From an uncultured Bacilli bacterium (GTDB lineage: Bacteria > Bacillota_I > Bacilli_A > RF39 > UBA660): a DNA stretch of 64,000 nt. Location of the stretch: NCBI GenBank assembly GCA_934096735.1, contig CAKOMS010000002.1, positions 19,073-83,072 of the forward strand, written 5' to 3'. The notes under the pieces were generated by a model, which made no database searches, was not told the DNA's origin, and saw only the letters and a list, made by a program, of their open reading frames with translations. The translations under genes and the position numbers were made by a program. Position 1 is the first letter of the stretch, and each line of letters starts with the position of its first letter. This document shows positions 25,853-56,198 of the stretch, one piece after another.

Positions 25853-26599
25853 ATGACAATATATATAGATTTATTATTTATATTAAACTTTATATATGAT
25901 TTTATCTTACTACTAACAGTTTGCATTACTTTAAAAAGAAATGTAACAATAAAAAGAATACTACTTTCTTCTTTATTTGGAGCATTTACAACATTTATAA
26001 TATTATTACCATTTAATAAATACATAATTTTTATTCTAAAAATATTATCTAGTTTTATTTTAGTAATAATAGCATTTAGATATAAAGATATAAAATACTT
26101 TTGGAATAATTTAATGTATCTATATATGTGTAGTGTTATTTTAGGAGGATTTTTGTATTTTTTGAAACTACAATTTAATAATCTATCATACTATATTGTT
26201 ATTCTATTTGGACCAATAATTTTATATATGTATAAAAAAATGCAAAAAGAATTATATGAAAAAGTAAATTATTTTAAAAAAGTAATTATCAATTTTAAAA
26301 ATAATAATACCTTGATTTTAAATGGATTTATAGATAGTGGAAACAAATTAAAAGATCCAATTACTAAAAAATATATAATTTTAATAAATAAAAATAAATT
26401 AAAGGGCATATATAATATAAGAAGCCCAATGTTTATTCCAATAGTAACAGTAAACAAACATAGTCTGCTAGAAGTAATAGGTATTAAAAATATAGTAATA
26501 GATAATAAAACTTACAATAATTATTTACTAGGTTTTACAAATCATACATTCAGTGATGGAATAGAATGTTTATTAAATTATCATTTATTGGAGGATTAA
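25853..26599 (+). CDS. spoIIGA: Sigma-E processing peptidase SpoIIGA
   Basis: Five N-terminal TM segments, a GFIDSGNKLKDP aspartic-protease motif, and position directly upstream of sigE. Confidence 0.85.
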   Translation: MTIYIDLLFILNFIYDFILLLTVCITLKRNVTIKRILLSSLFGAFTTFIILLPFNKYIIFILKILSSFILVIIAFRYKDIKYFWNNLMYLYMCSVILGGFLYFLKLQFNNLSYYIVILFGPIILYMYKKMQKELYEKVNYFKKVIINFKNNNTLILNGFIDSGNKLKDPITKKYIILINKNKLKGIYNIRSPMFIPIVTVNKHSLLEVIGIKNIVIDNKTYNNYLLGFTNHTFSDGIECLLNYHLLED

Positions 26600-26601
26600 A
26601 A

Positions 26602-27285
26602 ATGTTTAAAAAAATTATAGAATTTTTAAAATTAAAATATAATGAATGCTTTTTTGTTGGAGCAACAGATAAGTTGCCACCACCATTAAAAAAAAATAGA
26701 GAATTAGAATTATTATTAAAAGCTAAAGAAGGTGACATAGAAGCCAGAAATATATTAATTGAACATAATTTAAGATTAGTAGTATTCTTAGCAAAAAAAT
26801 ATGAAAATACTGGTTTTGATATTGAAGATTTAGTGTCAATCGGTTCAATTGGATTAATAAAAGGAATAAATACATATAAGCCAGATAAAAATATTAAGCT
26901 TGCTACTTATGCATCAAGATGTATAGCAAATGAAATATTAATGTTTTTAAGAAAAAATAAGAGAAAAAGAATAGAAGTAAGTTTAGAAAGTACATTAAAT
27001 TATGATGTAGAAGGAAATGAATTACATTTAGAAGATATTTTAGGAACTAGTATAGATGAAGTACCAAAAAAGTTTGAAAACATTATGGATAAAGCTACTT
27101 TAAAAAAGGAAATTGAAACACTAGGAGAAAGAGAAAAAGAAATAATGACATTAAGATATGGCTTAAATAATACAGAAGAATATACCCAAAAAGAAGTAGC
27201 AGAACTTTTAGGCATAAGTCAATCTTACATTTCTAGAATAGAAAAAAAAGTAGTAAAAAAATTACAAACTATTATGAAAACTTAA
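26602..27285 (+). CDS. sigE: Sporulation sigma factor SigE (pro-sigma-E)
   Basis: Pro-sequence then FFVGATDKLPPPLKKNRELELL. Sigma-70 regions 2 and 4 are present. GGAGG precedes ATG 26602. Confidence 0.9.
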   Translation: MFKKIIEFLKLKYNECFFVGATDKLPPPLKKNRELELLLKAKEGDIEARNILIEHNLRLVVFLAKKYENTGFDIEDLVSIGSIGLIKGINTYKPDKNIKLATYASRCIANEILMFLRKNKRKRIEVSLESTLNYDVEGNELHLEDILGTSIDEVPKKFENIMDKATLKKEIETLGEREKEIMTLRYGLNNTEEYTQKEVAELLGISQSYISRIEKKVVKKLQTIMKT

Positions 27286-27314
27286 ACAATCTTGAATTAT
27301 TCAAGATTGTTTTA
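27285..27314 (+). terminator. Terminator after sigE
   Basis: ACAATCTTGAA / TTCAAGATTGT stem plus a T-run. Confidence 0.75.
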
Positions 27315-27320
27315 AAATAC

Positions 27321-27409
27321 TTGAATTCATACTAATTTTATAGTATGATTTAGTAGAAAAGATAGAAAATAAGTAATAAGAAACATTTACTTACTCGGAG
27401 GTTGATAAA
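27321..27409 (+). promoter_or_regulatory. Conserved promoter/leader of surface-protein family (copy A)
   Basis: TTGAAT-17-TATGAT, then the leader AGATAGAAAATAAGTAA..TTACTTACTCGGAGGTTGATAAAATG shared with copies at 29516 and 53403. Confidence 0.6.
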
Positions 27410-29440
27410 ATGAGCAAAAATAGCTTCCGGGGGGGGGTTGTGAAACTCCTTCTTGGAATAGAAATAGTAACTTTATTTTTAGGGATTAAGAGTTTTGGTA
27501 ATAGACCATCAGAAAAATTAGATGATATAAAACTGCTACAAGCCATACATAAAAATAGTTTATATGCAGTAATGGTAGATGATGGGTCAGGTAATTATAC
27601 TGAAGGAAATGACTTTCCAATAGAAGGTTACATATTTAATAAAGAAAAATCAAAATGTATAGATTCAAATGGAAATACTTTAAATGATGAATTAAATTTT
27701 GTAAATGGTAATGTTGAAGTAACACTAGGTAAAACAGCATTTTGTTATTTATATTTTGATAAAAACAGTGAAACAATAATAACTTTAACAGTTACAAATG
27801 GTGTTGAGTCATATCAAACTGTACAATTTGAAGCAGCAGATGAAGACGGAATTGCAGGTGTTTACTACGGAATGGATAACCCAGAAGATACTGAAGTAAA
27901 TTATTCGGAAATAAGTGATGGTTCAACAACTAAATCTGTACAATTTATTGCAAGAGCATATGGTATTTATTATTTTTCGGTAAAAGATATACATGGTATG
28001 GTTACTACAACAAGTAGAGAATTTTTTGAGACGAAATTTAGCGTAGAAAATGGATCAGTAACACCAGCAAGTGTTATAACTTTAAAAGGTAATTCATTTG
28101 CATTACCTACTCCTAGAGCTAAGCCAGGATATACCGTAAGTACAACATGGCACGGAAATGGAACAACTTATGCAATCGGAAGTACATATACACCAACAAC
28201 AAATTCAACATTAACGGCAAATTCAAGTCAAAATAGATATAATGTAACTTTAACAATAACAAATGGAACAACTACAAGCGTAAATCCACAAGCAGTATTA
28301 CATGGTAGTTCGGCTTCATTTGCAATAACACCAAATACTGGATATGATTTAGTATTAGCAAGTGATACATGTAGTGGAACATTATCAGGATCAACCTATA
28401 CAGTAAGTAATGTTACATCAGCAAAAAGTTGTGCAATAACGCTTAAAAAGAAAACTTATAGTGTAAAAATAACAGTAACAAATGGTTCGACGAGCAGTAC
28501 AAATCCCCAAACAGTAGAACATGGTGGTTCAGCAAAATTCACAATATCAGCAAAGAGTGGATATCAATTATCATTATCATCGAATGGATGTGGTGGAACA
28601 CTATCAGGAAGTACTTACACAATTAGTAACGTAACTAGTGCAAAAACTTGTACAATAGTACTAAAAACAGCTTTAGCAGGTGATGCAATAAAAGCATTAA
28701 AACCAACCGGACTTGAAACAGTAGCAAGAGATGGGTTATATAGATTTGTAGGATCATCAAACAACTACGTATGCTTAGGGACTTGTAGTGACACTACAAA
28801 ATATAGAATAATTGGAATAACAGATGGTTCAAGTGGTAACACTAATTTAGGAATAAGTTCTGGACAATTAAAAATAAGAAGAGCAGTAGCCTTTGGAAAA
28901 ACAACATGGGGTGTCGACGACTGGTACAGCACAAAATGGGTTGATGCAAATTACTGGCAAGCCAAAACAGTTTATACTTATTTGAATATTACGAATAAAT
29001 CATCAATAATACCAAGTGGATGGAGTGACAAAATTTCTTCGGTTAAATGGAACATGGGAGATGTTAGAACTTTAGGAACCGGTAATGCAACATATAAATT
29101 AGAAGCGGCTGATCCAACTACAGATACATCACAAATAGGATTAATATATTTAAGCGATTATTTATATAGTGAAACAGCAGGAGGAACTACAATTTGTTAT
29201 GGAACAACATATTGTACAAATTCATGGATGAGACCTTCAGCAGGTTTTCAGGAATGGACAATGGGATATTATGGAGAAGAAGATAACAAAGGTAGAGCCT
29301 GGTCACTTATTAATAACCACGCAATATATCAAGTAAGGAGTTTATCACGTGATGTATATCCAGTATTTTATTTAAAAAATACTGTATCATTTACAGGAAC
29401 TGGAAATGGAACATCTTCAAACCCATATATTTTATCTTAA
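27410..29440 (+). CDS. Large surface protein, family member A (signal-anchor, conserved N-module, InlB-B-repeat-like modules, C-terminal W..RPA..PY domain)
   Basis: 676 aa. The N-terminal TM is VVKLLLGIEIVTLFLGI. It has 73-aa modules with conserved Cys pairs (..NPQ..HG.SA.F.I....GY.......C.GTLSGSTYT.SNVTS...C.I.LK). The C-terminal domain ends VYPVFYLKNTVSFTGTGNGTSSNPYILS. Confidence 0.85.
   Translation: MSKNSFRGGVVKLLLGIEIVTLFLGIKSFGNRPSEKLDDIKLLQAIHKNSLYAVMVDDGSGNYTEGNDFPIEGYIFNKEKSKCIDSNGNTLNDELNFVNGNVEVTLGKTAFCYLYFDKNSETIITLTVTNGVESYQTVQFEAADEDGIAGVYYGMDNPEDTEVNYSEISDGSTTKSVQFIARAYGIYYFSVKDIHGMVTTTSREFFETKFSVENGSVTPASVITLKGNSFALPTPRAKPGYTVSTTWHGNGTTYAIGSTYTPTTNSTLTANSSQNRYNVTLTITNGTTTSVNPQAVLHGSSASFAITPNTGYDLVLASDTCSGTLSGSTYTVSNVTSAKSCAITLKKKTYSVKITVTNGSTSSTNPQTVEHGGSAKFTISAKSGYQLSLSSNGCGGTLSGSTYTISNVTSAKTCTIVLKTALAGDAIKALKPTGLETVARDGLYRFVGSSNNYVCLGTCSDTTKYRIIGITDGSSGNTNLGISSGQLKIRRAVAFGKTTWGVDDWYSTKWVDANYWQAKTVYTYLNITNKSSIIPSGWSDKISSVKWNMGDVRTLGTGNATYKLEAADPTTDTSQIGLIYLSDYLYSETAGGTTICYGTTYCTNSWMRPSAGFQEWTMGYYGEEDNKGRAWSLINNHAIYQVRSLSRDVYPVFYLKNTVSFTGTGNGTSSNPYILS
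27429..27437 (+). repeat. G9 homopolymer in codons 7-10 of gene A (in frame)
   Basis: Counted directly: ttcc-GGGGGGGGG-ttgtg. Confidence 0.95.
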
Positions 29441-29451
29441 AATTCTTATAG

Positions 29452-29475
29452 GAGAGCAATAACGCTCTTTTTTTG
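29452..29475 (+). terminator. Terminator after gene A
   Basis: GAGAGC-aataac-GCTCTT plus 7 T. Confidence 0.6.
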
Positions 29476-29515
29476 TTATTTATTATTTCATTAGAAAGAA
29501 ACAAAAAACAATAAC

Positions 29516-29604
29516 TTGAATAAAAATAAATTTTATAGTATTCTATTAATAGAAAGATAGAAAATAAGTAAGAAGAAACATTTACTTACTCGGAGGTTGA
29601 TAAA
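29516..29604 (+). promoter_or_regulatory. Conserved promoter/leader of surface-protein family (copy B)
   Basis: TTGAAT-17-TATTCT and a leader nearly identical to the copy at 53403. Confidence 0.6.
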
Positions 29605-29622
29605 ATGAGCAAAAACAGCTTC

Positions 29623-29631
29623 GGGGGGGGG
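29623..29631 (+). repeat. G9 homopolymer in gene B (out of frame)
   Basis: Counted directly: ttc-GGGGGGGGG-ttgtga. It lacks the C that precedes the tract in A and D. Confidence 0.95.
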
Positions 29632-30632
29632 TTGTGAAACTCCTTCTTGGAATAGAAGTAATAACTTTATTTTTAGGGATTAAGAGTTTTGGTAATAAAA
29701 ATAACAGATTAGATGATATTAAATTATTAGATAGTAAATCTGATAATCTTTTTGCAATTATGATAAAGGATGCTAGTGGTAATTATAATGAATCAAGTAC
29801 ATTTCCAACTGGAGCATATGTACTTAATGAAACAATGTCATCATGTGTAGATAATAATGGTAATAAGATAGATAATGTACTTAGTTATAGTGATGGAGTA
29901 GTATCATCAAGAACAAATAAGACAGTATATTGTTATTTATATTTTGATAAAAACAGTGAAACAATATTAACAATAACAGCTTCAAATGGTGTTGAGTCAT
30001 TTCAAACTGTACAATTTGAAGCAGAAGATGAAAACGGAATTGCAGGTGTTTACTACGGAATGGATAACCCAGAAGATACTGAAGTAAATTATTCGGAAAT
30101 AAGTGATGGTTCAACAACTAAATCTGTACAATTTATTGCAAGAGCATATGGTATTTATTATTTTTCGGTAAAAGATATACATGGTATGGTTACTACAACA
30201 AGTAGAGAATTTTTTGAGACGAAATTTAGCGTAGAAAATGGATCAGTAACACCAGCAAGTGTTATAACTTTAAAAGGTAATTCATTTGCATTACCTACTC
30301 CTAGAGCTAAGCCAGGATATACCGTAAGTACAACATGGCACGGAAATGGAACAACTTATGCAATCGGAAGTACATATACACCAACAACAAATTCAACATT
30401 AACGGCAAATTCAAGTCAAAATAGATATAATGTAACTTTAACAATAACAAATGGAACAACTACAAGCGTAAATCCACAAGCAGTATTACATGGTAGTTCG
30501 GCTTCATTTGCAATAACACCAAATACTGGATATGATTTAGTATTAGCAAGTGATACATGTAGCGGAACATTATCAGGATCAACCTATACAGTAAGTAATA
30601 TCACATCAGCAAAAAATTGTGCAATAACGCTT

Positions 30633-31070
30633 AAAAAGAAAACATATACGTTTAGAATAAGTTTAGGTAATGCTACCACAAGTAGTACAAACCCACAAAC
30701 AATAGAACATGGAGGAAGTGCAACGTATGTAATAAATCCAAAAGATGGTTATGATTATGTGGCATCAAGTGATACCTGTGGAGGAACATTTAGTGGTAAA
30801 AATTATATCATACCAAATATTACATCAGATACAAAATGTACACTTGTACTTAAAAAGAAAACATATACGTTTAGAATAAGTTTAGGTAATGCTACCACAA
30901 GTAGTACAAATCCACAAACAATAGAACATGGAGGAAGTGCAACGTATGTAATAAATCCAAAAGAAGGTTATGATTATGTAGCATCAAGTGATACTTGTGG
31001 AGGAACATTTAATGGTAAAAATTATATCATACCAAATATTACATCAGATACAAAATGTACACTTGTACTT
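30633..31070 (+). repeat. Two tandem 219-bp (73-codon) near-identical repeats inside gene B
   Basis: AAAAAGAAAACATATACGTTTAGAATAAG... restarts at 30633, 30852 and (diverged) 31071. Only a few mismatches between the two units were seen by eye. Confidence 0.9.
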
Positions 31071-31349
31071 AAAAAGAAAAGCTATAAAATATCATTATTA
31101 GTTAGAAGACGTATTTCGACTGGTGCAGTTCAAAATACTCGGGAATCTCTAACGGTGAATCACGGAGAAAATGCAGTATTTTCAGTATATAATGAAGATG
31201 GTAATTATAATTTATATAATTCATATTTGAATACCAATACTTGTGGAGGAGTCTTTACAAAAGCTAATAATAAAATGACATACACTTTAAGTAACGTAAC
31301 AAGTGATATGGAATGTGAAATACTAGTTACATATAATGGAACTTACTAA

Positions 31350-31556
31350 GATGCAAAAAAATCATCACAATTTGATGTGAACCATGTCTAGGAGACATCA
31401 ATAGTTACTATATATATTAATATGTATAAAGAATATAGTTCACAAAAAAGTAGTAGATATACTCCACCATACTCATCATTAATTATATAAAAAAATACTG
31501 TATCATTTACAGGAACTGGTAATGGAACATCTTCAAACCCATATATTTTATCCTAG
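31350..31556 (+). pseudogene. Decayed 3' remnant of a family member
   Basis: 31490-31556 encodes KNTVSFTGTGNGTSSNPYILS*, identical to the end of gene C. Upstream sequence (..agtagat..) shows only degraded similarity with stops. Confidence 0.7.
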
Positions 31557-31604
31557 TAATATTGGAATATAGATTTAATAACTGATTCGATTATAAATTA
31601 ATTG

Positions 31605-31640
31605 AAAAACTTATATATAAAATTTATATAAGTTTTTTAA
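31605..31640 (+). terminator. Rho-independent terminator (duplicated at 39569-39604)
   Basis: AAAACTTATATA-taaaat-TATATAAGTTTT plus T. Confidence 0.75.
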
Positions 31641-31642
31641 TT

Positions 31643-31672
31643 GAATAAATAATTGAAACTTCGTCCATAATT
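31643..31672 (+). promoter_or_regulatory. Forespore (sigma-F/sigma-G type) promoter of sigG
   Basis: GAATA-18 nt-CATAATT fits the published G(C/A)ATA ... CATxxTA consensus. An identical copy lies at 39607-39636. Confidence 0.5.
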
Positions 31673-31690
31673 TTATTGGAAGGTAAAATT

Positions 31691-32467
31691 ATGGCAAAAT
31701 ACAAAGTAGATATTAGTGGAGTAAATACAAGTGAATTAAAAGTTTTAAAAAACGACGAAATAAGAGAATTATTTATAAGACTTAAAAATGGAGATACTTC
31801 TGCTAAAGAAGAATTAGTAAATGGAAACTTAAAATTAGTTTTATCAATACTTGGAAAATATTCAAATAGTAAATATAACATGGATGATTTATTTCAAGTA
31901 GGAGTAATTGGTTTAATAAAAGCAATTGATAATTTTGACATTTCTCTTAACTTAAGATTATCAACCTATGCAGTCCCACTAATAATTGGAGAAATAAAAA
32001 GATATATTAGAGACAACACAGAAATAAGAATTAGCAGAAGCATAAAAGATTTAGCATATAAAATAATCAAATTTCAAGATGAGTATACAATAATCCATGG
32101 CTTTCCTCCAAAAAATGAAGAAATATGTGAAAGCCTAGGAATAGATGAATACGAAATATCTTATGCACTCGATGCCTTAAGAGATCCCACTAGTATATTT
32201 GAGCCAATTTACAATGATGGCGGAGACACAATCTTCTTACAAGATCAAATCGCAGACAAAAGAGAAATAGATAAAGATAGAGATATGTTAATTTCACTTA
32301 GAAGAGCACTTCAAAAAATAAAAGAAAAAGAAAAAAATATTTTAATATCTAGATTCATTATAGGAAAAACACAAACAGAAATTGCAGATTCTTTAGGTAT
32401 AAGTCAAGCACAAGTTTCTAGAATAGAGAAAAATGCTATTACTAATGTTAGAAAACTTATAAAGTAA
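31691..32467 (+). CDS. sigG: Sporulation sigma factor SigG
   Basis: MAKYKVDISGVNTSELKVLKNDEIRELF..AKEELVNGNLKLVLS..DDLFQVGVIGLIKAIDNFD closely parallels Bacillus SigG. Confidence 0.9.
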   Translation: MAKYKVDISGVNTSELKVLKNDEIRELFIRLKNGDTSAKEELVNGNLKLVLSILGKYSNSKYNMDDLFQVGVIGLIKAIDNFDISLNLRLSTYAVPLIIGEIKRYIRDNTEIRISRSIKDLAYKIIKFQDEYTIIHGFPPKNEEICESLGIDEYEISYALDALRDPTSIFEPIYNDGGDTIFLQDQIADKREIDKDRDMLISLRRALQKIKEKEKNILISRFIIGKTQTEIADSLGISQAQVSRIEKNAITNVRKLIK

Positions 32468-37483: not shown

Positions 37484-39520
37484 GTGAAAAAAAGATCATT
37501 TTTAATTATATTACTATTAATAATGGAGGTATCATTAATTTTTTTTAGTGTAAAAAGTTTTAATAATAAACCATCAGAAAAATTAGATGATATAAAACTG
37601 CTACAAGCCATTCAAAAAAACAGTTTATATTCAGTAATGATAAATGATGGAACTGGTAATTATACCGAAGAAAACGACTTTCCATCAAGCAATTACATTT
37701 TAAATAAAGAAAAATCTAAATGTATTGACTCAAATGGAAATACTTTAGAAGACGAATTAAATTTTGTAAATGGTAATGTTGAAGTAACACTAGATAAAAC
37801 AGCATTTTGTTATTTATATTTTGATAAAAACAGTGAAACAAGAATAACTTTAACAGTTTCAAATGGTGTTACGTCATCTCAAACTGTACAAATTGAAGCA
37901 GAAGATGAAGATGGACTTGCAGGTGTTTACTATGGAATGGATAACCCAGAAGATACTGAAGTAGAATATACTGAAGTTTATGATAGTCCAACAAGCAAAT
38001 CTTGGACATTTCATACATCAGGCCCAGGTATCTATTATTTTTCAGTAAAAGATATACATGGTATGGTTACTACAACAAGTAGAGAATTCTTTCAAACAAA
38101 ATTTAATGTAGAAAATGGAAGGGTAAATCCAACTAGTGTTTTAACACTAAAAGGTAATTCATTTATCTTACCAACCCCCGAATCTAGAAATCAAGGATAT
38201 ACCGTAAGTACAACCTGGCATGGCAATGGAACAACTTATGAAAGTGGAAGTACATATACACCAACAACAAATTCAACATTAACAGCAAATTCAACTCAAA
38301 ATAGTTATAATGTAACTTTAACAATAACAAATGGAAAAACAACAAGCGTAAATCCACAAACAGTATTACATGGTAGTTCAGCATCATTTGCAATAACACC
38401 AAATACCGGATATGATTTAGTATTAGCAAGTGATACATGTAGTGGAACATTATCTGGATCAACCTATACAGTAAGTAATGTTACATCAGCAAAAAATTGT
38501 GCAATAACACTTAAAAAGAAAACTTATAGTGTAAAAATAACAGTAACAAATGGTTCAACGAGCAGTACAAATCCACAAACAGTAGAACATGGTGGTTCAG
38601 CAAAATTCACAATATCAGCAAAAAGTGGATATCAATTATCATTATCATCGAATGGATGTGGTGGAACACTATCAGGAAGTACTTACACAATTAGTAATGT
38701 TACTAGTGCAAAAACTTGCACAATAGTATTAAAAACTGCTTTAGCTGGGGATGCAATAAGAGCATTAAAACCAACCGGACTTGAAACAGTAGCAAGAGAT
38801 GGGTTATATAGATTTGTAGGATCATCAAACAACTATGTATGCTTAGGGGCTTGTAGTGACACTACAAAATATAGAATAATTGGAATAACAGATGGTTCAA
38901 GTGGTAACACTAATTTAGGAATAAGTGCTGGACAATTGAAAGTAAAAAGAGAATCATCATTTGGAAAAACAACATGGGGTATTATGGACGATTTCAACAC
39001 AAAATGGGTTGATGCAAATTACTGGCAAGCCAAAACAATTTATACTTATTTGAATATTACGAATAAATCATCAATAATACCAAGCGGATGGAGCGATAAA
39101 ATTTCTTCGGTTAAATGGAATATGGGAGATGTTAAATTAGGAACTGGTTATTATGCGGAAGGAACAGCGAACGAAATTTATAAATTGGAAGCAGCAGAAC
39201 CAACTACAGCAACCTCGCAAATAGGATTAGTTTATTTAAGTGATTTTTCTTATAGCGAGTCTGTCGGAGGAACAACAATTTGTAAATATAACAATAGTTG
39301 TAAAAACTCTTGGATGAGTGATCGAATAGATTGGTGGACAATGGGCTATTTTGGTAAATCGGGAGAAAAATATAGAGCATGGAATATTCAACGTGGGACT
39401 CCAATAGCTCAAGTAAGAAGTAGATCTTTAGATGTATACCCAGTATTTTATTTAAAAAATACAGTATCATTTACAGGAACTGGTAATGGAACATCTTCAA
39501 ACCCATATATTTTATCCTAG
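37484..39520 (+). CDS. Large surface protein, family member C (full-length paralog of A, no poly-G tract)
   Basis: AGGAGG lies 6 nt before GTG 37484. It is collinear with A over its whole length, with scattered substitutions. The TM is FLIILLLIMEVSLIFFSV. Confidence 0.85.
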   Translation: MKKRSFLIILLLIMEVSLIFFSVKSFNNKPSEKLDDIKLLQAIQKNSLYSVMINDGTGNYTEENDFPSSNYILNKEKSKCIDSNGNTLEDELNFVNGNVEVTLDKTAFCYLYFDKNSETRITLTVSNGVTSSQTVQIEAEDEDGLAGVYYGMDNPEDTEVEYTEVYDSPTSKSWTFHTSGPGIYYFSVKDIHGMVTTTSREFFQTKFNVENGRVNPTSVLTLKGNSFILPTPESRNQGYTVSTTWHGNGTTYESGSTYTPTTNSTLTANSTQNSYNVTLTITNGKTTSVNPQTVLHGSSASFAITPNTGYDLVLASDTCSGTLSGSTYTVSNVTSAKNCAITLKKKTYSVKITVTNGSTSSTNPQTVEHGGSAKFTISAKSGYQLSLSSNGCGGTLSGSTYTISNVTSAKTCTIVLKTALAGDAIRALKPTGLETVARDGLYRFVGSSNNYVCLGACSDTTKYRIIGITDGSSGNTNLGISAGQLKVKRESSFGKTTWGIMDDFNTKWVDANYWQAKTIYTYLNITNKSSIIPSGWSDKISSVKWNMGDVKLGTGYYAEGTANEIYKLEAAEPTTATSQIGLVYLSDFSYSESVGGTTICKYNNSCKNSWMSDRIDWWTMGYFGKSGEKYRAWNIQRGTPIAQVRSRSLDVYPVFYLKNTVSFTGTGNGTSSNPYILS

Positions 39521-39697
39521 TAATATTGGAATATAGATTTAATAACTGATTCGATTATAAATTAATTGAAAAACTTATATATAAAATTTATATAAGTTTT
39601 TTAATTGAATAAATAATTGAAACTTCGTCCATAATTTTATTGGAAGGTAAAATTATGGCAAAATACAAAGTAGATATTAGTGGAGTAAATACAAGTG
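39454..39697 (+). repeat. 244-bp direct repeat, copy 2
   Basis: See 31490-31733. Confidence 0.95.
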
Positions 39698-40104
39698 GAG
39701 GAAAATTAACGACAGCATTAGGTTTTGTTGATTCTAAAATAAGTAATAGAAGATTAACGTGTCAAGATAAAGAGGATCAATTCACATTAAAAGTAGCTAA
39801 AGGTGGAACACTAGGTTATGGAAATAATGCCTTGGATTACCCAGTTGGTTTATTAACTGTGTTAGAAACACAACTAGTGAATGAATCAGCTAATTATTTA
39901 AATAATAATGATAACTATTGGTTGCTATCTCCTAATTACTTCACTAGCAGTGCTGGTGTATATGGTAAAAACTATGGGGGAGTTAGTTATTATGGTGCGG
40001 CTAGCATTCTCGGGGCTCGACCAGCTATCTCAATAAAGAAAAATATTAAAATATCTGGAGGAACCGGAGAAAAAGAAAACCCATACACACTAAGCCTTAC
40101 ATAA
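39655..40104 (+). CDS. Chimeric ORF: first 14 codons of sigG fused to a C-terminal fragment of a surface-protein family member
   Basis: MAKYKVDISGVNTS is identical to SigG. Then comes ...NYWLLSPNYFTSSAGVY..GARPAISIKKNIKISGGTGEKENPYTLS, resembling the family C-terminal domain. It is preceded by the duplicated sigG promoter and RBS. Confidence 0.6.
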   Translation: MAKYKVDISGVNTSGGKLTTALGFVDSKISNRRLTCQDKEDQFTLKVAKGGTLGYGNNALDYPVGLLTVLETQLVNESANYLNNNDNYWLLSPNYFTSSAGVYGKNYGGVSYYGAASILGARPAISIKKNIKISGGTGEKENPYTLSLT

Positions 40105-41257: not shown

Positions 41258-42586
41258 TCAAAGCATTTCAATTTTATTTTTTATAAATGGATTTACATAT
41301 TCTTTATTATCGGTTGTAGAAGAAGTATTACTTACTACCTCTTTTCCAATAATAGCATTTTTTATATCTTCATCTTCATTACCAAAGTCGTCATTTAAAT
41401 CTATTACTCTTAATAACTCATCCATAGAAGTAAAACCTTCCATAACCTTTAAAAGACCATCTTTAAGAAGTGTATTACCTTTATCTCCATAAACTAATTT
41501 TCTAAGTTCATCTTTTCTTAAATTATTAACAATAGCATCTTTAATTTCTTGATTTATCTCAAGTACTTCATGAATAGCAATTCTTCCTTTATATCCATTA
41601 ATACATTCATCACATCCATGAGGAATATATATTTGATTAACATCTATACCTAAAACAGTTTTAAACAATGTTTTTTCATATTTATTAGTAGGTCTACTAG
41701 TTCTACATTTAGGACATAATTTCTTTACTAGTCTTTGTGAAATAATACCAGAAAGAGCACTTCCAAGTAGATATCTCTCTACATCCATGTCAAGTAATCT
41801 TTCAATAGTATTTAAAGCACTATTTGTATGTATTGTAGATAATACTAGGTGTCCAGTAATAGAAGCTCTAACAGCTATTCTAGCAGTTTCATCATCACGA
41901 ATTTCCCCAATCATTATAATATCAGGGTCTTGTCTTAAAATACTTCTTAATGTATTACCAAAAGTAAGACCAATCTCACTCATAACTTGAACTTGATTAA
42001 TACCATTAATCTTCATTTCTACTGGATCTTCAACAGTAATAATATTTCTCTCAGTAGTATTTAATACTTGTAACATAGAATATACAGTAGTACTTTTACC
42101 ACTACCAGTAGCACCAGTAACCAATATAATACCATTGGGTTTCTTTATAAGTTTATTTACCATATCAAAATTATCTTTAGAAAGTCCAATAGATTCAAGA
42201 CCACTTAAACTCATTCTATAATCAAGAATTCTTATAACTATTTTTTCGCCTTCAACTAAAGGTAAACTAGATACACGCAAATCCACATCAATATTTTCAA
42301 TTAATCCTTTTATAGCACCATCTTGAGGTAATCTAGTTTCAGTAATATTCATTCCAGAAATAATTTTAACTCTTGTAACTAAATTCTTTCTAACAGTAGG
42401 AGGAACTTTTGCATACTCTAAAAGAGAACCGTCGATTCTTATACGGACAATTAAATCTGTTTCAGTTGGATCAAAATGAATATCTGACGCTCCATGTTTA
42501 ACAGCATCAATAATCATTTCATTTACAATATCAACAACCGGTTTATTATCATAGTCGAATTCTCTAAACACTAGAACCACCGTCAA
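41258..42586 (-). CDS. Type II/IV secretion ATPase (PilB/GspE/ComGA-like)
   Basis: ASDIHFDP, Walker A GATGSGKSTT, Asp box, Walker B and His box (GHLVLSTIHTN), and a CxxC..CxxC tetracysteine. TTG start, and no long N-terminal GSPII_E_N domain. Confidence 0.85.
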   Translation of the reverse strand: MTVVLVFREFDYDNKPVVDIVNEMIIDAVKHGASDIHFDPTETDLIVRIRIDGSLLEYAKVPPTVRKNLVTRVKIISGMNITETRLPQDGAIKGLIENIDVDLRVSSLPLVEGEKIVIRILDYRMSLSGLESIGLSKDNFDMVNKLIKKPNGIILVTGATGSGKSTTVYSMLQVLNTTERNIITVEDPVEMKINGINQVQVMSEIGLTFGNTLRSILRQDPDIIMIGEIRDDETARIAVRASITGHLVLSTIHTNSALNTIERLLDMDVERYLLGSALSGIISQRLVKKLCPKCRTSRPTNKYEKTLFKTVLGIDVNQIYIPHGCDECINGYKGRIAIHEVLEINQEIKDAIVNNLRKDELRKLVYGDKGNTLLKDGLLKVMEGFTSMDELLRVIDLNDDFGNEDEDIKNAIIGKEVVSNTSSTTDNKEYVNPFIKNKIEML

Positions 42587-50284: not shown

Positions 50285-51853
50285 ATGAAAGCACAAAATA
50301 ATCAAGAAAAAAAAGTTTGGTATGTTGTAGTAGTAGAATTTTTGAAAAAAGTAGCATTAACTATTTTTTCGATATTCTCTTATGCATTTATAGGGGTAAA
50401 AGCATGTACTTATGATGCCTTTGTTTATGTATACAATTCATTAAGTTGGAAACTAGATAAAGCATATAAAAGGACAAAAGAAGTTTTAGCACAAGATGCA
50501 TATGATAAACCTAAGGAAAAAAAAGAAAAAGTATATAAATACAGTGCTAAAACAATGGCTAAACTTGAAGCAGAATATAATGAACTAGTAAAAGATTTAC
50601 AAACAAGTGGAGCCACAAGATCAAAAGAGGCAAATGTTTATTATTTTAAAGTTAGAGATAAACAAGGAAAAATTATTACTGGTACTATGAATGGTCTTTC
50701 TAAATTAGATATTAATTCATTCTTAGTTAATGAAGGTTATACTGTTTATAGTATTAAAACTAGTCCATTTATTAACTTTTTATTTAAAGAAAGTAGCTTA
50801 ATGGCACCAAAAATGTCAAATAAAGAATTAGTTTTTTGGCTAACTCAGTTATCAACTTATTTAAAAGCAGGTATTACATTAAATGATGCGATAAGAATAT
50901 TATCAAAACAAACGTCTAAAAATAAAACAAAAGCGAGAGCTTTTCAATCAATTTCATACGAATTGGTACTTGGTTCATCTTTCTCTAAAGCATTAGAGAA
51001 ACAAGGAAATATGTTTCCAGCACTTTTAATCAATATGATTAAAGCAGCAGAAGCGAGTGGTACTTTAGTTGAAACATTAGATGATATGGCAAATTATTAC
51101 ACTGAAGTAGATGAAACAAGAAAAGAAATGTTAGGCGCATTATCTTATCCAATTATTATTAGTGTTTTTGCAATAGCAGTTATAACATTTATATTAATTT
51201 ATATAGTTCCTAAATTTGTTAAAATTTATGAATCACAAGATATATCGATATCAGGTATAACATTATTCTTAGTAAACTTTAGTACATTTATGAAAAATAA
51301 TATATTTATTATAATTGGTTTACTATTACTTACTATAATAGTTTTAATAGTAGCATATAAAGAGATTAAAGCATTTAGAAGAAATGTTCAAACACTTCTT
51401 ATGCATATACCTGTAGTTAAAGATATTATAATTTATAAAGAACTTACAATATTTACAAAAACATTTGCATCTTTATTAAGAAATAATGTATTTATTACAG
51501 AAAGTATAGATATACTAACAAAAATAACAAATAATGAAATATACAAAGGTATTTTATATAGAACTATTAATAATGTAGTTAAAGGTGAAAAAATATCTGA
51601 AGCGTTTAAAGATCATTGGGCTGTACCAGATGTAGCATATTTTATGATTACTACTGGTGAATCAACTGGTGAACTTGATGAAATGATGCAAAAAGTAAGT
51701 GATTATTATCAAGGATTACACAAAAATGTAGTAAACAATTTAAAAACATTTATAGAACCAATTTTAATTGCATTTTTAGCAATAATAGTTGGAGGAATTA
51801 TCTTAGCAGTTATTATGCCAATGTTCAGCATGTATAGTGAGATGTTAAAATGA
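50285..51853 (+). CDS. Type IV pilus/competence platform protein (PilC/GspF/ComGB-like) with about 115-aa N-terminal extension
   Basis: Two GspF-type repeats (ELVFWLTQLSTYLKAGITLNDAI.. and ELTIFTKTFASLLRNNVFITESI..) and YYFKVRDKQGKIITGTMNG. An extra N-terminal hydrophobic segment is present. TAGGTG precedes ATG 50285. Confidence 0.85.
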   Translation: MKAQNNQEKKVWYVVVVEFLKKVALTIFSIFSYAFIGVKACTYDAFVYVYNSLSWKLDKAYKRTKEVLAQDAYDKPKEKKEKVYKYSAKTMAKLEAEYNELVKDLQTSGATRSKEANVYYFKVRDKQGKIITGTMNGLSKLDINSFLVNEGYTVYSIKTSPFINFLFKESSLMAPKMSNKELVFWLTQLSTYLKAGITLNDAIRILSKQTSKNKTKARAFQSISYELVLGSSFSKALEKQGNMFPALLINMIKAAEASGTLVETLDDMANYYTEVDETRKEMLGALSYPIIISVFAIAVITFILIYIVPKFVKIYESQDISISGITLFLVNFSTFMKNNIFIIIGLLLLTIIVLIVAYKEIKAFRRNVQTLLMHIPVVKDIIIYKELTIFTKTFASLLRNNVFITESIDILTKITNNEIYKGILYRTINNVVKGEKISEAFKDHWAVPDVAYFMITTGESTGELDEMMQKVSDYYQGLHKNVVNNLKTFIEPILIAFLAIIVGGIILAVIMPMFSMYSEMLK

Positions 51854-52608
51854 TTTATGTAGTTATGTTTATTTTTGGAGCCTTATTTGGCTCTTTCTAT
51901 TTAGTTATAGGCACAAGACTTCCACTAAAAGAAAATGTAATTACTGGAAGAAGCAGATGTGATAATTGTGAAAAAACACTTAAGTGGTATGAATTAATTC
52001 CAATTATAAGTTTTATATTTCAAAAAGGAAAATGTAACCATTGTCACAAAAAAATTAGTATAGAACATTTAATTGTAGAAATAATTACAGGTATTCTTTT
52101 TGTAGTAGGATATTTAATTTATGGCCTAACTTGGGATTTAGGTATATATTTAATACTTACTTCCCTAACAATATTGATATTTATAAGTGATTTTAAATAC
52201 ATGATAATACTTGATTCACCATTAGTTATATCATCAATTCTTTTAGTATTCATCACATATGAAAAGTCTGGTTTAAAATTAACATTATATCATTTAATTT
52301 ATGCTTGTTTATTATTTTTAACAATGTATTTAATTAAAATTATTGGAGATAAATTATTTAAAAAAGAATCTTTAGGTGGGGGAGATATAAAACTTTCTTT
52401 TGTAACTGGTTTAGTACTAGGATATCAACTAGGATTAATATCATTAATTTTTGCATCTTTTCTAGCACTTCCGTATGCAGTATTAAGTTTATATCTAAAC
52501 AAAAAAAATGAACTTCCATTCGGTCCATTTTTAATATCCTCAGCCTTAATAATCTTTATATTTATAGAAAAATTTACAAATTTATTAATATTTTTTCAAT
52601 TATCTTAA
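51850..52608 (+). CDS. Prepilin peptidase (A24 family, PilD/ComC-like)
   Basis: CDNCEKTLKWYELIPIISFIFQKGKCNHCHKKIS zinc-ribbon-like motif and GGGDIKL second catalytic Asp box. Confidence 0.88.
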   Translation: MIYVVMFIFGALFGSFYLVIGTRLPLKENVITGRSRCDNCEKTLKWYELIPIISFIFQKGKCNHCHKKISIEHLIVEIITGILFVVGYLIYGLTWDLGIYLILTSLTILIFISDFKYMIILDSPLVISSILLVFITYEKSGLKLTLYHLIYACLLFLTMYLIKIIGDKLFKKESLGGGDIKLSFVTGLVLGYQLGLISLIFASFLALPYAVLSLYLNKKNELPFGPFLISSALIIFIFIEKFTNLLIFFQLS

Positions 52609-52700
52609 TATAAAGCATAAACTGCTATTCCGGCAACAAAAGATGCTACCATTAAGAATAACATTAACCAAACTAAGATTTTCTTAGTTTTTTTATTCAT
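52605..52700 (-). CDS. 31-aa hydrophobic peptide (below the ORF-track cutoff)
   Basis: The minus strand reads AAGGTGGG, a 9-nt spacer, then ATG. The product is MNKKTKKILVWLMLFLMVASFVAGIAVYALY. Confidence 0.35.
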   Translation of the reverse strand: MNKKTKKILVWLMLFLMVASFVAGIAVYALY

Positions 52701-52815
52701 TAAATATCCCACCTTTAATACAATTTAAATATATCATAATTTAGTTCTTTTTAAAAGTATTTTTCATATTATTAAGTGTAATGAGTCGTAATTTAATTAA
52801 AGGAAAGGTCACAGT

Positions 52816-53391
52816 ATGAAAAAAATTTTAAAAAACAATAAACAATTTATTACTTTTTTACTTGTACTTTTTATAGTATCTTTTGCACTTAGTATAATAT
52901 ATTTTTCATTTTTAACAGATGAAGTAAAAGAAAGTATACAAATATCTTTAAAAAGTAATTCAATATATAATTATAATAAAATAATTAATGATTTAATAAT
53001 TATGTCAGTTCTTTTAATTACATCATTTTTCATAATTGGAAGTCCACTTAGTATAATATATTTAGTTTATGATTTCTTTTCAGTCGGATTTCTTTTAATG
53101 ATTCATAACTATACTTATGGCATAGGTGGTATAGTATTTATATTAATTTATATATTCTTAAATAAATTTATATTTTACATTTTATATTCAATATTTATAA
53201 AAAGATTAATTAAAATAAGTATATTAGTATTCAAAAAAATAGCAATAAAACAAGAATTTACCAATAATAATCGTTTAGTATCTAACTTTACATCTTCTTT
53301 ATATCTTATATTAATAGTACTTATATATAACGTATTATTATATATACTAAATCCTTTTGTATTAAATAAATTAGCATACTTAATAAAATAA
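52816..53391 (+). CDS. SpoIIM-like polytopic membrane protein
   Basis: About 190 aa with 5 hydrophobic segments. IIGSPLSIIYLVYDFFSVGFLL resembles the SpoIIM VIGLPVIFILLFLKGVVVGF block. Confidence 0.45.
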   Translation: MKKILKNNKQFITFLLVLFIVSFALSIIYFSFLTDEVKESIQISLKSNSIYNYNKIINDLIIMSVLLITSFFIIGSPLSIIYLVYDFFSVGFLLMIHNYTYGIGGIVFILIYIFLNKFIFYILYSIFIKRLIKISILVFKKIAIKQEFTNNNRLVSNFTSSLYLILIVLIYNVLLYILNPFVLNKLAYLIK

Positions 53392-53402
53392 ACTTTCATG
53401 AC

Positions 53403-53490
53403 TTGAATAAAAATAAATTTTATAGTATTCTATTAATAGAAAGATAGAAAATAAGTAAGAGTAAAACTTACTTACTCGGAGGTTGATAAA
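53403..53490 (+). promoter_or_regulatory. Conserved promoter/leader of surface-protein family (copy D)
   Basis: TTGAAT-17-TATTCT plus the shared leader ending CTTACTCGGAGGTTGATAAAATG. Confidence 0.6.
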
Positions 53491-54861
53491 ATGAAAAAAA
53501 TAGACTTCCGGGGGGGGGTTGTGAAACTCCTTCTTGGAATAGAAATTACAACTTTATTTTTAGGGATTAAAAGTTTTGGTAATAAGAATAACATAATTGA
53601 TGATATTAAATTATTGGATAATAAATCTAATAATCTTTTTGCAATTATGGTACAAGATGATACGGGTAATTATGTAGAAAGTAGTGATTTTCCAAAAGGT
53701 AAATATAAATTAAATGATGAACTAACTGTATGTAATGATAATAATGGAGATAGAGTAGAAAATGTACTTAGTTACTCAAATGGTTTTGTAACTGTAACAA
53801 GTAAAAGAACTATATTTTGTTATTTGTATTTTGAACCTAAAGTAGATTTAATAATAAATGTTACAAATGAAACAATACCTAAAACATCTGGTTATAGTGT
53901 AGTATCAACTTGTCCAAACAGTAATTGGAGTGATAAATATCAAAGATTAGAACTTGGAGATATATCAAATCCAACAGTAGAATGTAATTTAACATATAAT
54001 AAAAGAACATTTGATGAAAGTAAAAAATTAAGTGCCATAGCATCCACAGTAGGAACTTCAGGAATTGGAAGTATAGTAGATGAGGGAGATGCAGGATTCA
54101 GATATGAAGGACAAGATCCAAATAACTATATCTGGTTTAATAATGAATTATGGAGAATAATCGGAGTAATACCAACAAAAGTAGATTCAAGTGGAACAAC
54201 AGAAAATTTAGTAAAGATAATAAGAAACTCCGCAATTGGAGGACTTGCATATGATGCAAATTCAACTGGTAAAGGAGCATGGGGAAGTAATACTTTGTAT
54301 AGTTTATTAAATGAATATTATTGGGGTAAAGAGAATGGAACAAATACAACAGGATGTTATGGATACCGAAATGAATACCGATCAACTTCAAAATCAAAAT
54401 GTGATTATACAAAAATTGGGTTAGAAACAACAGATTATTATGGTGATATGGTTAAGAAAGTATATTGGAATACAGGAGTAAGTATGTATGATAAAACAGC
54501 AAGTGAAGTGTACGAAACAGAAAAAACTGTCCAAACAGTATACAATTACATAGGACTCATGAGTGCAAGTGATTATGGATATGCGACAAGCGCATCGCAT
54601 AGCAAAAATCTTTCTTCATATAATAATGCAACCCATACATTAAACAATTGGTTATATGGACAAGGAGACGAATGGACAAATATTCTGAGTGTTCGTTCTA
54701 ATTATGCGACTTATGTGAGTTCTGGCGGGGATGTGAACGGCATTAGTGCGGCTCGTAGCAATGTGGCTCGTCCAGCCTTGTATATGGAGTCTGATATATA
54801 TGTGTACTCAGGAGATGGAAGTAAAGTCGATCCATATATTGTTTCGAAGAAATTAAATTAA
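53491..54861 (+). CDS. Surface protein, family member D (shared N-terminus and poly-G, shorter body, W..RPA..PY C-domain)
   Basis: MKKIDFRGGVVKLLLGIEITTLFLGIKSFGN. The N-module is conserved with A-C, followed by NYIWFNNELWRIIGVIP ... ARPALYMESDIYVYSGDGSKVDPYIV. Confidence 0.85.
   Translation: MKKIDFRGGVVKLLLGIEITTLFLGIKSFGNKNNIIDDIKLLDNKSNNLFAIMVQDDTGNYVESSDFPKGKYKLNDELTVCNDNNGDRVENVLSYSNGFVTVTSKRTIFCYLYFEPKVDLIINVTNETIPKTSGYSVVSTCPNSNWSDKYQRLELGDISNPTVECNLTYNKRTFDESKKLSAIASTVGTSGIGSIVDEGDAGFRYEGQDPNNYIWFNNELWRIIGVIPTKVDSSGTTENLVKIIRNSAIGGLAYDANSTGKGAWGSNTLYSLLNEYYWGKENGTNTTGCYGYRNEYRSTSKSKCDYTKIGLETTDYYGDMVKKVYWNTGVSMYDKTASEVYETEKTVQTVYNYIGLMSASDYGYATSASHSKNLSSYNNATHTLNNWLYGQGDEWTNILSVRSNYATYVSSGGDVNGISAARSNVARPALYMESDIYVYSGDGSKVDPYIVSKKLN
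53510..53518 (+). repeat. G9 homopolymer in codons 7-10 of gene D (in frame)
   Basis: Counted directly: ttcc-GGGGGGGGG-ttgtg. Confidence 0.95.
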
Positions 54862-54884
54862 TTGGTTGGAAAGGCGAGTGTAAT

Positions 54885-56018
54885 ATGAAAAAATATTGTG
54901 TTGTAATTATGTCTGTTTTAGCAATTTTATTACTAACTTATTTTGCTTTACAAAGTAATGATAGTAATAAAATGTTTATGCAAGATGGAATACTTTTTGC
55001 TATGACAAAAGATGGAGAAGATATAACATCCTTTCCAACAGATGGTAAATATAAAGTTAGTATTGATTGTAAAAATGGTAAAGGTAATTATTTATATTTT
55101 GAAGATGAAAATAAATGGAAATTTACTGTAGAAAATATTACTGGAAAAGTAAGTTGTAATGTTGACTTTACAACTGTAAGTAATAGTGATTTATTAGGTG
55201 TAGTAGCATCCACAGTAGGAACCTCAGGAACAGGAAGTATAGTTAATGAGGGGGATGCTGGATTTAGATATGAAGGACAAGATCCAAATAATTATATTTG
55301 GTTTAATAATGAGTTGTGGAGAATAATTGGAGTTATACCAACAAAAGTAGATTCAAGTGGTACAACAGAGAATTTAGTAAAAATAATAAGAAATGAATCA
55401 ATTGGAGGACTAGCATATGATGCAAAGTCATCGTCATCTGGATCTACAGGAGCATGGGGAAGTAATACTTTGTATAGTTTGTTAAATGAATATTACTATG
55501 GTAAAAAAGATGGAACAAATACAACAGGATGTTATGGAAATCGAGCAACTGCCAAAGCAAAATGTGATTATACAGAAATAGGAATAAATGGAGCAGATTA
55601 TTATGGCAGTATGATAAAAAAAGTATATTGGAATACAGGAGCAAGTGATAATGGTGCAACAGCAAGTACTGTATATGGAACAGAAAAGGCTACTCAAACA
55701 ATATACAATTATGTAGGACTCATGAGTGCAAGTGATTATGGATATGCTACAAGTGCATCGCATAGTACAGATTTAGATTCTTATAATAATGAGATACACA
55801 CATTAAACAATTGGTTATATGGACAAGGATATGAATGGACAAATATTCAGAATTCTGACTATGCTTATCAAACACTTTATGTATTTTATCTGGGTGATGT
55901 GACTGGCACTATTGCGAGCTATGGCTCTGCAGTTCGTCCAGCAGTGTATCTAAATTCTAATATCTATGCATCATCTGGAGATGGATCACAATTAAATCCT
56001 TATATACTTATATATTAG
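54885..56018 (+). CDS. Surface protein, family member E (ordinary signal anchor, C-domain paralogous to D)
   Basis: ASTVGTSGTGSIVNEGDAGFRYEGQDPNNYIWFNNELWRIIGVIPTKVDSSGTTENLVKIIRN is nearly identical to D. It ends VRPAVYLNSNIYASSGDGSQLNPYILIY. Confidence 0.85.
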   Translation: MKKYCVVIMSVLAILLLTYFALQSNDSNKMFMQDGILFAMTKDGEDITSFPTDGKYKVSIDCKNGKGNYLYFEDENKWKFTVENITGKVSCNVDFTTVSNSDLLGVVASTVGTSGTGSIVNEGDAGFRYEGQDPNNYIWFNNELWRIIGVIPTKVDSSGTTENLVKIIRNESIGGLAYDAKSSSSGSTGAWGSNTLYSLLNEYYYGKKDGTNTTGCYGNRATAKAKCDYTEIGINGADYYGSMIKKVYWNTGASDNGATASTVYGTEKATQTIYNYVGLMSASDYGYATSASHSTDLDSYNNEIHTLNNWLYGQGYEWTNIQNSDYAYQTLYVFYLGDVTGTIASYGSAVRPAVYLNSNIYASSGDGSQLNPYILIY

Positions 56019-56198
56019 TTAAATAAACTTTTTAATCGTCAACGAAGACGTTAAAATAGACGAGTTCTCCCGAACTACTACAAAGGTACTCTATAATTTT
56101 TAGGGTACTTTTTATATTTCAAAAACTTTAAAAATCATGCAAACTTTACAAAAGCTCAAAAATTATTTATAATACATAACCGAAAGGAAGTATTTATA

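Follow-up and report, generated by a model that had tools for sequence, protein, structure and literature searches.

Phase variation through simple DNA repeats is mostly known from a few pathogens, and the switches described in gut commensals are mainly DNA inversions (Bacteroides, Clostridioides difficile). In Neisseria gonorrhoeae and Neisseria meningitidis, pilC1 and pilC2 carry poly-G in the region encoding the signal peptide of a pilus-associated adhesin, and the poly-G contingency genes of Campylobacter jejuni are similar. In other systems the repeat is in the promoter: N. meningitidis porA has poly-G between the -35 and -10 hexamers, opc has poly-C, and in Mycoplasma hyorhinis vlp, a multigene family of lipoproteins, the promoter has poly-A. 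General background on repeat-based phase variation is given in PMC8355987, PMC5320596 and PMC11868660, the last of which cites Vlp. Among spore formers, homopolymer phase variation has been described for Bacillus subtilis swrA (A8/A9) and for a flagellar gene hotspot of Paenibacillus glucanolyticus (PMC2831843, PMC9941203). Here, we analyzed a stretch of 64,000 nucleotides (nt) from an uncultured gut Bacilli bacterium (contig CAKOMS010000002.1; hereafter, the window), in which three paralogous genes for predicted surface proteins (genes A, B, and D) each carry a run of nine G (G9) a few codons after the start. We consider it probable that the three runs are hypermutable, heritable but reversible translational ON/OFF switches (contingency loci) of a multicopy surface-protein family, on the strength of reading-frame logic and comparison between strains.

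The G+C content of the 64-kb window is 26%, and 2-kb windows within it span 17 to 33%. The census of G runs showed lengths of 1 to 5 and then none before 9. Exactly three runs were longer than 5, all of them G9 and all on the + strand, at 27429-27437 in gene A, 29623-29631 in gene B, and 53510-53518 in gene D, and no C run longer than 5 was found in the whole window by the homopolymer census. The eight-G string GGGGGGGG has six matches in the window, two per run, compared with an expectation of 0.03 from dinucleotide-preserving shuffles, and 0 of 100 shuffles attained six matches. Because 0.03 matches were expected and six were seen, the three runs are real and far from chance. They begin 19 nt after the ATG in gene A (ATG at 27410), 18 nt after it in gene B (29605), and 19 nt after it in gene D (53491), so that, as in known contingency loci, a homopolymer of at least about 8 nt that exceeds the expectation from composition lies in the 5' part of the open reading frame (ORF).

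The runs are embedded in a cassette of about 165 nt that the alignment showed to be common to the three genes and that comprises the promoter, the 5' untranslated region (5'UTR), the Shine-Dalgarno sequence, and the first ~30 codons. The conserved part of the alignment starts at cTTGAAT, which contains a -35-like hexamer, and continues through a fixed A/T spacer of 17 nt to a -10 hexamer that is TATGAT in gene A and TATTCT in genes B and D. The promoter-like sites thus defined lie on the + strand at 27321-27349 for gene A, where they form the 5' edge of the cassette, at 29516-29544 for gene B, and at 53403-53431 for gene D. The 5'UTR holds a small AAGTAAG/CTTACTT hairpin, and GGAGG, a perfect Shine-Dalgarno sequence, is located 8 nt before the ATG in all three genes (27397-27401, + strand, in gene A). 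The ATG is followed by six codons, the G run, and then TTGTGAAACTCCTTCTTGGAATAGAA, which encodes a membrane helix and is identical in the three copies.

The effect of run length on the reading frame was simulated from G5 to G13 for the three genes. Genes A and D gave full ORFs of 676 and 456 amino acids (aa), respectively, at G6, G9, and G12, a 10-aa product ending in TTG TGA at G8, and a stop after 26 codons at G10. Gene B reads agcttc before the run, one C fewer than the agcttcc of genes A and D. At G9 it is out of frame, and its start (29605-29637, + strand) consists of the ATG, the run, and TTG TGA, encoding the 10-aa peptide MSKNSFGGGL; its full length of 580 to 582 aa appeared at G7, G10, and G13. 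In all three genes, a change of one unit from an in-frame length leads to an early stop, and the in-frame lengths give the full product. As assembled, genes A and D are ON, with the run of gene A occupying part of codon 7, codons 8 and 9, and the first base of codon 10, and the run of gene D likewise in frame. Gene B is OFF, because with one C missing it is already out of frame at G9. An earlier sequence-only reading had reported three runs of exactly nine G at these positions in an A+T-rich window, beginning 18 to 19 nt after an ATG in a conserved context, and had deduced for genes A and D that G8 leads to TTG TGA and G10 to a stop after about 20 codons. The run census, the shuffles, and the frame simulation bore out all of these statements.

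The length of the run was then compared among assemblies carrying the same cassette. Copies were retrieved by exact-protein look-ups and by a metagenome scan with the 5'UTR pattern, from many human-gut assemblies, Hadza samples included, and from the metagenome-assembled genome (MAG) GCA_964329735.1. Run lengths were counted only where both flanks were present, and retrieved copies are designated here by L numbers. The run was G7 in L004b and L005, G8 in L003, and G9 in L002, L009, L093, L095, L096, L097, and L100 as well as in the window copies. It was G10 in L004a, L006/L011, L094, L099, and L101, and also in L088 and L089-L092, which were fetched via proteins called from the GTG after the run and are OFF by construction. 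The D locus of sample ERZ27287023 (L088) showed 99.93% identity over 4341 nt with window positions 52022-56361. Apart from two mismatches, the only difference was a single gap at the run (G10 in L088 versus G9 in the window), so that gene D is ON in the window and its ortholog in that sample is OFF. In addition, L009 and L016 were identical at 400 of 400 upstream positions and had G9 and at least G10, respectively. The change in length is recent, because strains that are otherwise almost identical differ in it.

Ten contigs carried an FtsZ identical to that of the window, and in eight of them the run of the first gene after sigE could be read through. Five of these runs were G9 and three were G10. 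Among the G9 copies, L093, L095, and L100 had full ORFs of 525 to 676 aa, L096 was open to the end of the contig, and L097 ended 6 nt past the run; the G10 copies (L094, L099, and L101) were OFF. The OFF alleles retained intact ORFs of 444 to 675 codons behind the run. Close strains therefore show the combination seen in contingency loci, namely, length polymorphism, conserved flanks, and intact ORFs in the OFF state. The sequence-only reading had named tract length across related genomes as a check, and the run indeed differs (G7 to G10) between assemblies, near-identical strains among them. Its claim that gain or loss of one G switches the gene off is supported by this variation together with the frame simulation and the intact OFF ORFs.

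The intact OFF alleles also bear on ordinary gene decay, in which frameshifts at the mutable run of a large redundant family would be pseudogenization underway. Degenerate copies do exist. In several strains, a truncated family remnant of 90 to 110 aa with a full cassette is located upstream of spoIVB (L003 547-819, L004 4001-4273, and L005 2046-2318, all with G7 or G8, and L087 442-774, with no run); at this position the window has paralogue C and a chimera with the 5' end of sigG instead. Another copy, L002 3971 (ERZ27287023, between eno and the PFOR gene), has G9, ATT replacing the ATG, and an ORF of 94 codons, and it may be decaying or using a rare start codon. However, the run is the only lesion in the full-length OFF alleles, where hundreds of codons stay open downstream. 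Its position is the same in every cassette copy, where it is kept at 9 to 10 G in a genome of 26% G+C, and in other lineages the family has poly-G in its promoter spacers, as described below. We therefore regard gene decay as highly improbable and the contingency-locus reading as the better account of the OFF alleles.

Another explanation is that the run is a fixed element, such as a Gly-Gly motif, an mRNA helix sequestering the Shine-Dalgarno sequence, or an internal Shine-Dalgarno sequence for the GTG, and that the differences in length arise from sequencing or assembly error. The run is indeed hard to assemble, as many contigs break at it. In coding-type and promoter-type cassettes alike, many independent metagenome and MAG contigs end at most a few bases away from the poly-G (L007, L008, L010, L012, L013, L015, L016, L094 at its end, L097, L098, and L101; L021, L043, L050-L052, L055, L058, and L065). 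These breaks are compatible with read-level heterogeneity and equally with a repeated cassette or with poly-G trouble in Illumina sequencing. For these two reasons, contig ends were not taken as proof of heterogeneity. In contrast to what error would produce, different loci had different lengths within the same sample and assembler (G9 and G10 in ERZ27287023, G9 and G10 in ERZ27287075, and G9 and G8 in GCA_964329735.1), and the copy at the cotE locus was G10 in three samples. The differences between loci and the agreement at cotE argue against random or systematic miscounting.

The predicted RNA structure gives the fixed-element explanation some support. In the predicted mRNA fold (53420-53560, and likewise in genes A and B), the Shine-Dalgarno region CUCGGAGGUU pairs with GACUUCCGGG, a stretch that takes in the first G's of the run. 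In the predicted cassette RNA the Shine-Dalgarno sequence is paired with CUUCCGGG, and the remaining G's of the run pair with AACUCCU downstream; the minimum free energy is -34.7 kcal/mol, with a z score of -3.8 relative to shuffles. Moreover, GGGGG followed after 2 to 6 nt by GTG resembles a Shine-Dalgarno sequence with its start codon. The TTG TGA sites lie at 27438-27443, 29632-29637, and 53519-53524, and the TGA of the -1 phase overlaps the GTG (as GTGA) that opens the main ORF. With the run as a Shine-Dalgarno-like element just 5' of this GTG, termination and reinitiation could yield the protein minus its first 10 residues. Gene callers take the GTG after the run as the start in OFF alleles, e.g., in P0013-P0015.

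Relatives that lack the run bear on both its origin and its possible role as a fixed element. Two closer relatives have a segment of the same length with nine ordinary bases at the position of G9: the window reads TTCC-GGGGGGGGG-TTGTG, and the relatives read CTAC-ATGAAATGA-TTGTG and CTAC-GTGAAGTAG-TTGTG. These segments encode HEM-I and REV-V, compared with RGG-V in the window, and the two proteins read MKKNTLHEMIVKLLLG and MINEKNTLREVVVKLLLG from the upstream ATG. The upstream ATG is thus the ancestral start, and, because the segments are of equal length, G9 is the length that keeps the ancestral frame. The replacement of RGG by HEM or REV indicates that the Gly-Gly pair is dispensable. Furthermore, neither a coding nor an RNA role can explain the poly-G found in the promoter spacer of distant family members or the polymorphism in the DNA. 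A fixed element combined with error is therefore unlikely in our judgment, and the runs are better read as switches.

The promoter-spacer poly-G was found in distant members of the family. A scan of genomes with a profile of the family N-domain returned 69 loci, mostly in MAGs of uncultured Bacilli from the rabbit gut, and up to 32 family loci were found in one MAG. The genomes of these distant relatives are labelled "uncultured Bacilli bacterium" or "uncultured Mycoplasma sp." In 337 kb around the rabbit-gut family genes, all G runs of at least 6 (52 of 52) were in the context cTTGAC[AT]CC-Gn-TA[AT]TA-TATAAT, and their lengths were G6 in 2, G7 in 5, G8 in 33, G9 in 11, and G10 in 1. The runs lie 26 to 72 nt upstream of the longest family ORF (29 to 30 nt in the commonest cassette type), and the ORFs behind them are mostly intact, at ~420 to 440 aa, with a few shorter or cut by the contig end. 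The -35/-10 spacer equals n+7, so that G8 gives 15 nt and G10 gives the consensus TTGACA-17-TATAAT at 12/12 positions. Other relatives, including an "uncultured Mycoplasma sp." MAG, have no run. A promoter-spacer homopolymer of the porA/opc/Vlp type is absent from the window cassettes, where the 17-nt A/T spacer is fixed and free of runs, and was seen only in the distant family members of the rabbit-gut MAGs. Poly-G thus occupies two control points within one protein family, in cassettes with no obvious similarity, and, apart from selection for switchability, little would explain its presence at both in different lineages. In the sister lineages, the same outcome would be reached transcriptionally, with poly-G in the -35/-10 spacer and G10 giving the perfect promoter.

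A further explanation is that transcriptional slippage or ribosomal frameshifting on G9 or G10 yields mixed products from each allele, so that the run would set the expression level as a rheostat with no heritable ON/OFF state. Long homopolymers are known for transcriptional realignment, mainly A/T runs of at least 9, and intact ORFs would be expected in OFF alleles also if these were still expressed by slippage. However, slippage is less efficient at G runs than at A/T runs, and the observed DNA length polymorphism between near-identical strains suffices for ON/OFF. In addition, the promoter-spacer version in the relatives acts at the DNA level only. A rheostat of this kind is very unlikely on balance, and we retain the heritable switch as the explanation.

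In the proposed mechanism, each gene bears its own cassette, consisting of a sigma-A-type promoter, 5'UTR, Shine-Dalgarno sequence, ATG, six codons, run, and membrane helix. Slippage is established behavior for G/C runs of 8 or more, and, by analogy, slipped-strand mispairing at replication would add or remove a G. Genes A and D, in which the run is preceded by 19 nt, yield the full protein when the number of G's is a multiple of three, a peptide of 10 aa at G8, and one of 26 aa at G10. Because the run of gene B is preceded by 18 nt, which puts this gene one step out of register with A and D, the three genes would switch independently, and the surface proteins expressed would occur in different combinations within a population. 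Evasion of host immunoglobulin A (IgA) or phage, or variation of adhesion in the gut, would be the likely benefit. We infer the slippage process, its rate and reversibility, and the selective agent, whereas the placement of the run, the frame logic, the polymorphism between strains with near-identical flanks, the intact OFF alleles, and the promoter-spacer poly-G of the relatives are observations. Copies of the cassette also occur at the eno, cotE, and spoIVB loci elsewhere in the genome, which would be additional switching loci.

Several points weigh against this reading. Part of the census is biased to OFF through the retrieval of L088-L092 described above. The intact genes show only G9 and G10, and G7 and G8 are confined to the truncated 90-aa remnant. 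Long G runs can be miscounted in Illumina assemblies, and the many contigs ending at the run could reflect sequencing trouble and not true heterogeneity. The OFF state may be leaky: transcriptional or ribosomal slippage could make it so, as could reinitiation at the GTG, where the start codon and the Shine-Dalgarno-like run may affect one of the two OFF phases. Run length might also tune translation initiation through the predicted Shine-Dalgarno pairing. Finally, reversible switching within a population is something that we infer from comparative data.

Gene A (676 aa, 27410-29440, + strand) encodes an N-terminal membrane helix, the family N-domain, beta repeats resembling InlB-B repeats, and a lectin-like C-terminal domain, an assignment that follows the model of its paralogue D. 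The body of gene B is an intact ORF of 571 codons at 29634-31349 (+ strand), whose GTG start overlaps the stop codon TGA of the 10-aa peptide. Downstream of ftsA-ftsZ-spoIIGA, the interval from sigE (26566-27285) to sigG (31676-32467) holds genes A and B as an insertion, and these surface-protein genes (27286-31675) interrupt the spoIIGA-sigE-sigG sporulation cluster, which is otherwise conserved. A terminator-like hairpin is present after each of sigE and gene A, and the one after gene A (29450-29471, + strand) indicates that A and B are separate transcription units. The content of the sigE-sigG interval varies among FtsZ-identical strains (L093, L094, L095, L099, and L100): the window has two genes, and the variants have either one gene of 525 to 590 aa followed by sigG or other genes, or a gene of 667 to 676 aa followed by the contig end or a second cassette. 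The interval looks like a recombination hot spot.

Paralogue C (678 aa, 37484-39520, + strand) is 87% identical to gene A in DNA over 2 kb and has no G run. Its promoter and N terminus differ from the cassette type, and it is thus a nonswitchable member of the family. A segment of 251 nt at 31483-31733, covering the sigG upstream region and the first ~43 nt of sigG (MAKYKVDISGVNTS...), is duplicated with 98.8% identity at 39448-39697, directly after gene C, where it opens a chimeric ORF of 154 aa (39640-40104). In addition, the last 70 nt of gene A (29368-29436) recur after gene B (31483-31552). These duplicated flanks after B and C indicate that family genes have evidently been copied between loci along with their flanks.

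Gene D (456 aa, 53491-54861, + strand) encodes a transmembrane (TM) helix at residues 6 to 30, a flexible linker, beta domains at 50 to 171, and a C-type-lectin-like head at 180 to 456. It is followed by a 377-aa paralogue of the D head domain at 54885-56018 (+ strand), which has an ordinary signal or anchor and no G run. Upstream of gene D are, in order, dnaG-sigA, a gene with no family assignment, a pilC-like gene, a prepilin peptidase gene, and a gene for a 191-aa membrane protein. Genes resembling those of type IV pilus or type II secretion systems lie near C and D and encode a PilB/GspE-like ATPase (41258-42586, - strand), a PilC/GspF-like platform protein with a long N-terminal extension (50285-51853), and a prepilin peptidase (51850-52608); no obvious pilin gene was seen near them. 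Rfam showed no family in or near the cassettes, and its only matches elsewhere were tRNAs and RNase P.

Neither Pfam nor NCBIfam matched A, C, D, or the 377-aa protein when E values up to 5 were allowed. For gene B they gave only weak matches, a Lyase_8_C fragment of 28.2 bits (cut-off, 22) with no single stretch within the E-value limit, and a Flg_new_2 match under its cut-off. When proteins were first searched with the N-domain profile, only 12 short fragments were retrieved, which proved to be OFF or truncated gene calls, and a database search with D returned more than 3,800 relatives, of which the few named ones are "hypothetical" and come from MAGs of Bacilli or Clostridia. The AlphaFold2 model of D (66 sequences; predicted local distance difference test [pLDDT], 88; predicted template modeling score [pTM], 0.77) comprises a helix at residues 6 to 30, a disordered linker at 31 to 45, beta domains at 50 to 171, and a compact domain at 180 to 456. 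Its sole significant match in the PDB was the IgA peptidase of Thomasclavelia ramosa, 9qa6 (Foldseek E = 1.3e-6; probability, 1.00), with 18% identity over 309 aligned columns; a profile search against PDB sequences returned nothing. The N-terminal domain of 9qa6 is described by the depositors as an enlarged C-type-lectin-like domain, akin to the C-domain that the Legionella collagen-like adhesin carries, and is dispensable for cleavage (PMC12237041). Judging from size and position, D most likely matches this noncatalytic lectin-like domain.

Three other identities were considered and rejected. The catalytic motif HExxHxxxGxxD of the M64 IgA metallopeptidases (igalysin) is lacking: a motif search found no HExxH in A, B, C, D, or the 377-aa paralogue, and A to D are thus not proteases. 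Pilins were considered because D follows the pilC-like and prepilin peptidase genes and C is near the pilB-like ATPase gene. However, the N termini read RGG-VVKLLLGIE, with the Glu at +9 or +2 depending on the Gly chosen and no G(-1)/E(+5), and the tract-less and distant relatives lack the Gly. A double-glycine leader was dismissed, given a leader of only 9 residues and tract-less relatives without Gly-Gly. No lipobox Cys was found near the N terminus in the N-terminal sequences read, which indicates TM-anchored proteins and not lipoproteins. The best reading is that the family consists of N-terminally anchored surface proteins, with a predicted ligand-binding, lectin-like head in A and D. A surface-exposed product that interacts with host or phage, the usual output of a contingency locus, is thus predicted here.

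On a broader scale, our confidence is evenly divided on whether uncultured low-G+C gut Bacilli, spore formers among them, run a lineage-wide combinatorial variation of their surface. Such variation would act on one large family of TM-anchored proteins, many with a lectin-like head, through poly-G at the -35/-10 spacer (rabbit gut) or at codons 7 to 10 (human gut), in analogy to Mycoplasma Vlp or Neisseria Opa/PilC. It would possibly be tied to IgA or mucus, because of the resemblance to the N-terminal domain of the IgA peptidase. In uncultured, spore-forming gut Bacilli, a classical repeat switch would then be linked to a large family of surface proteins that has no name. If the switching is real, the surface that these bacteria offer to host IgA, mucus, and phages would change stochastically, which bears on strain persistence, and many "truncated" or GTG-started gene calls in MAGs would in fact be OFF alleles. 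Run length would also be a simple marker that can be counted in existing metagenomic reads.

The mechanism is not new and is of the type known from Neisseria pilC and porA, Campylobacter, and Mycoplasma Vlp. The sequence-only reading was aware of no described equivalent in a surface-protein family of spore-forming low-GC Bacillota. Homopolymer switches as such are known from spore formers, given swrA and Paenibacillus, so that the statement narrows to a multigene family of surface proteins switched by poly-G. In the literature searched, neither this family nor any poly-G switch in this lineage was found to be described. The novelty lies in the family itself, the lineage in which it occurs, the mobile promoter-to-signal cassette, and the occurrence of the run at two positions within a single family.

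The closest resemblance is to pilC and the Campylobacter genes. As in these, a G run of ~8 to 13 nt lies in the first codons of a surface protein, in its secretion or anchor signal, a change of one G leads to an early stop, and several independent loci allow combinatorial expression. Those systems belong to Gram-negative pathogens, whereas the host here is an uncultured gut member of the Bacilli with 26% G+C and sporulation genes. The proteins form an unrelated family that lacks annotation, the run belongs to a promoter-to-signal cassette that is duplicated and moves from locus to locus, and switching is predicted from sequence comparison. The rabbit-gut relatives are more similar to porA, opc, and vlp, with Gn between a perfect TTGACA and a perfect TATAAT, and, like Vlp, they have dozens of paralogues per genome, mostly at off-optimal lengths and a few at the optimum. 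The three genes of the window differ from these systems in their fixed 17-nt A/T spacer, and the proteins differ from Vlp in being TM anchored and not lipoproteins. The N-terminal domain of the T. ramosa IgA peptidase (9qa6) is likewise on the cell surface of a low-G+C gut organism of the Bacilli class, but the identity is only 18%, and A to D lack HExxH and a metallopeptidase domain. Finally, swrA and the Paenibacillus hotspot share with the window a frameshifting homopolymer in the coding region of an endospore-forming member of the Bacillota. In those cases the homopolymer lies in a single gene for regulation or flagella, as an A/T-type run or an isolated hotspot, whereas the window has a G run that is extreme for the composition of the genome and is replicated across a multigene family of surface proteins.

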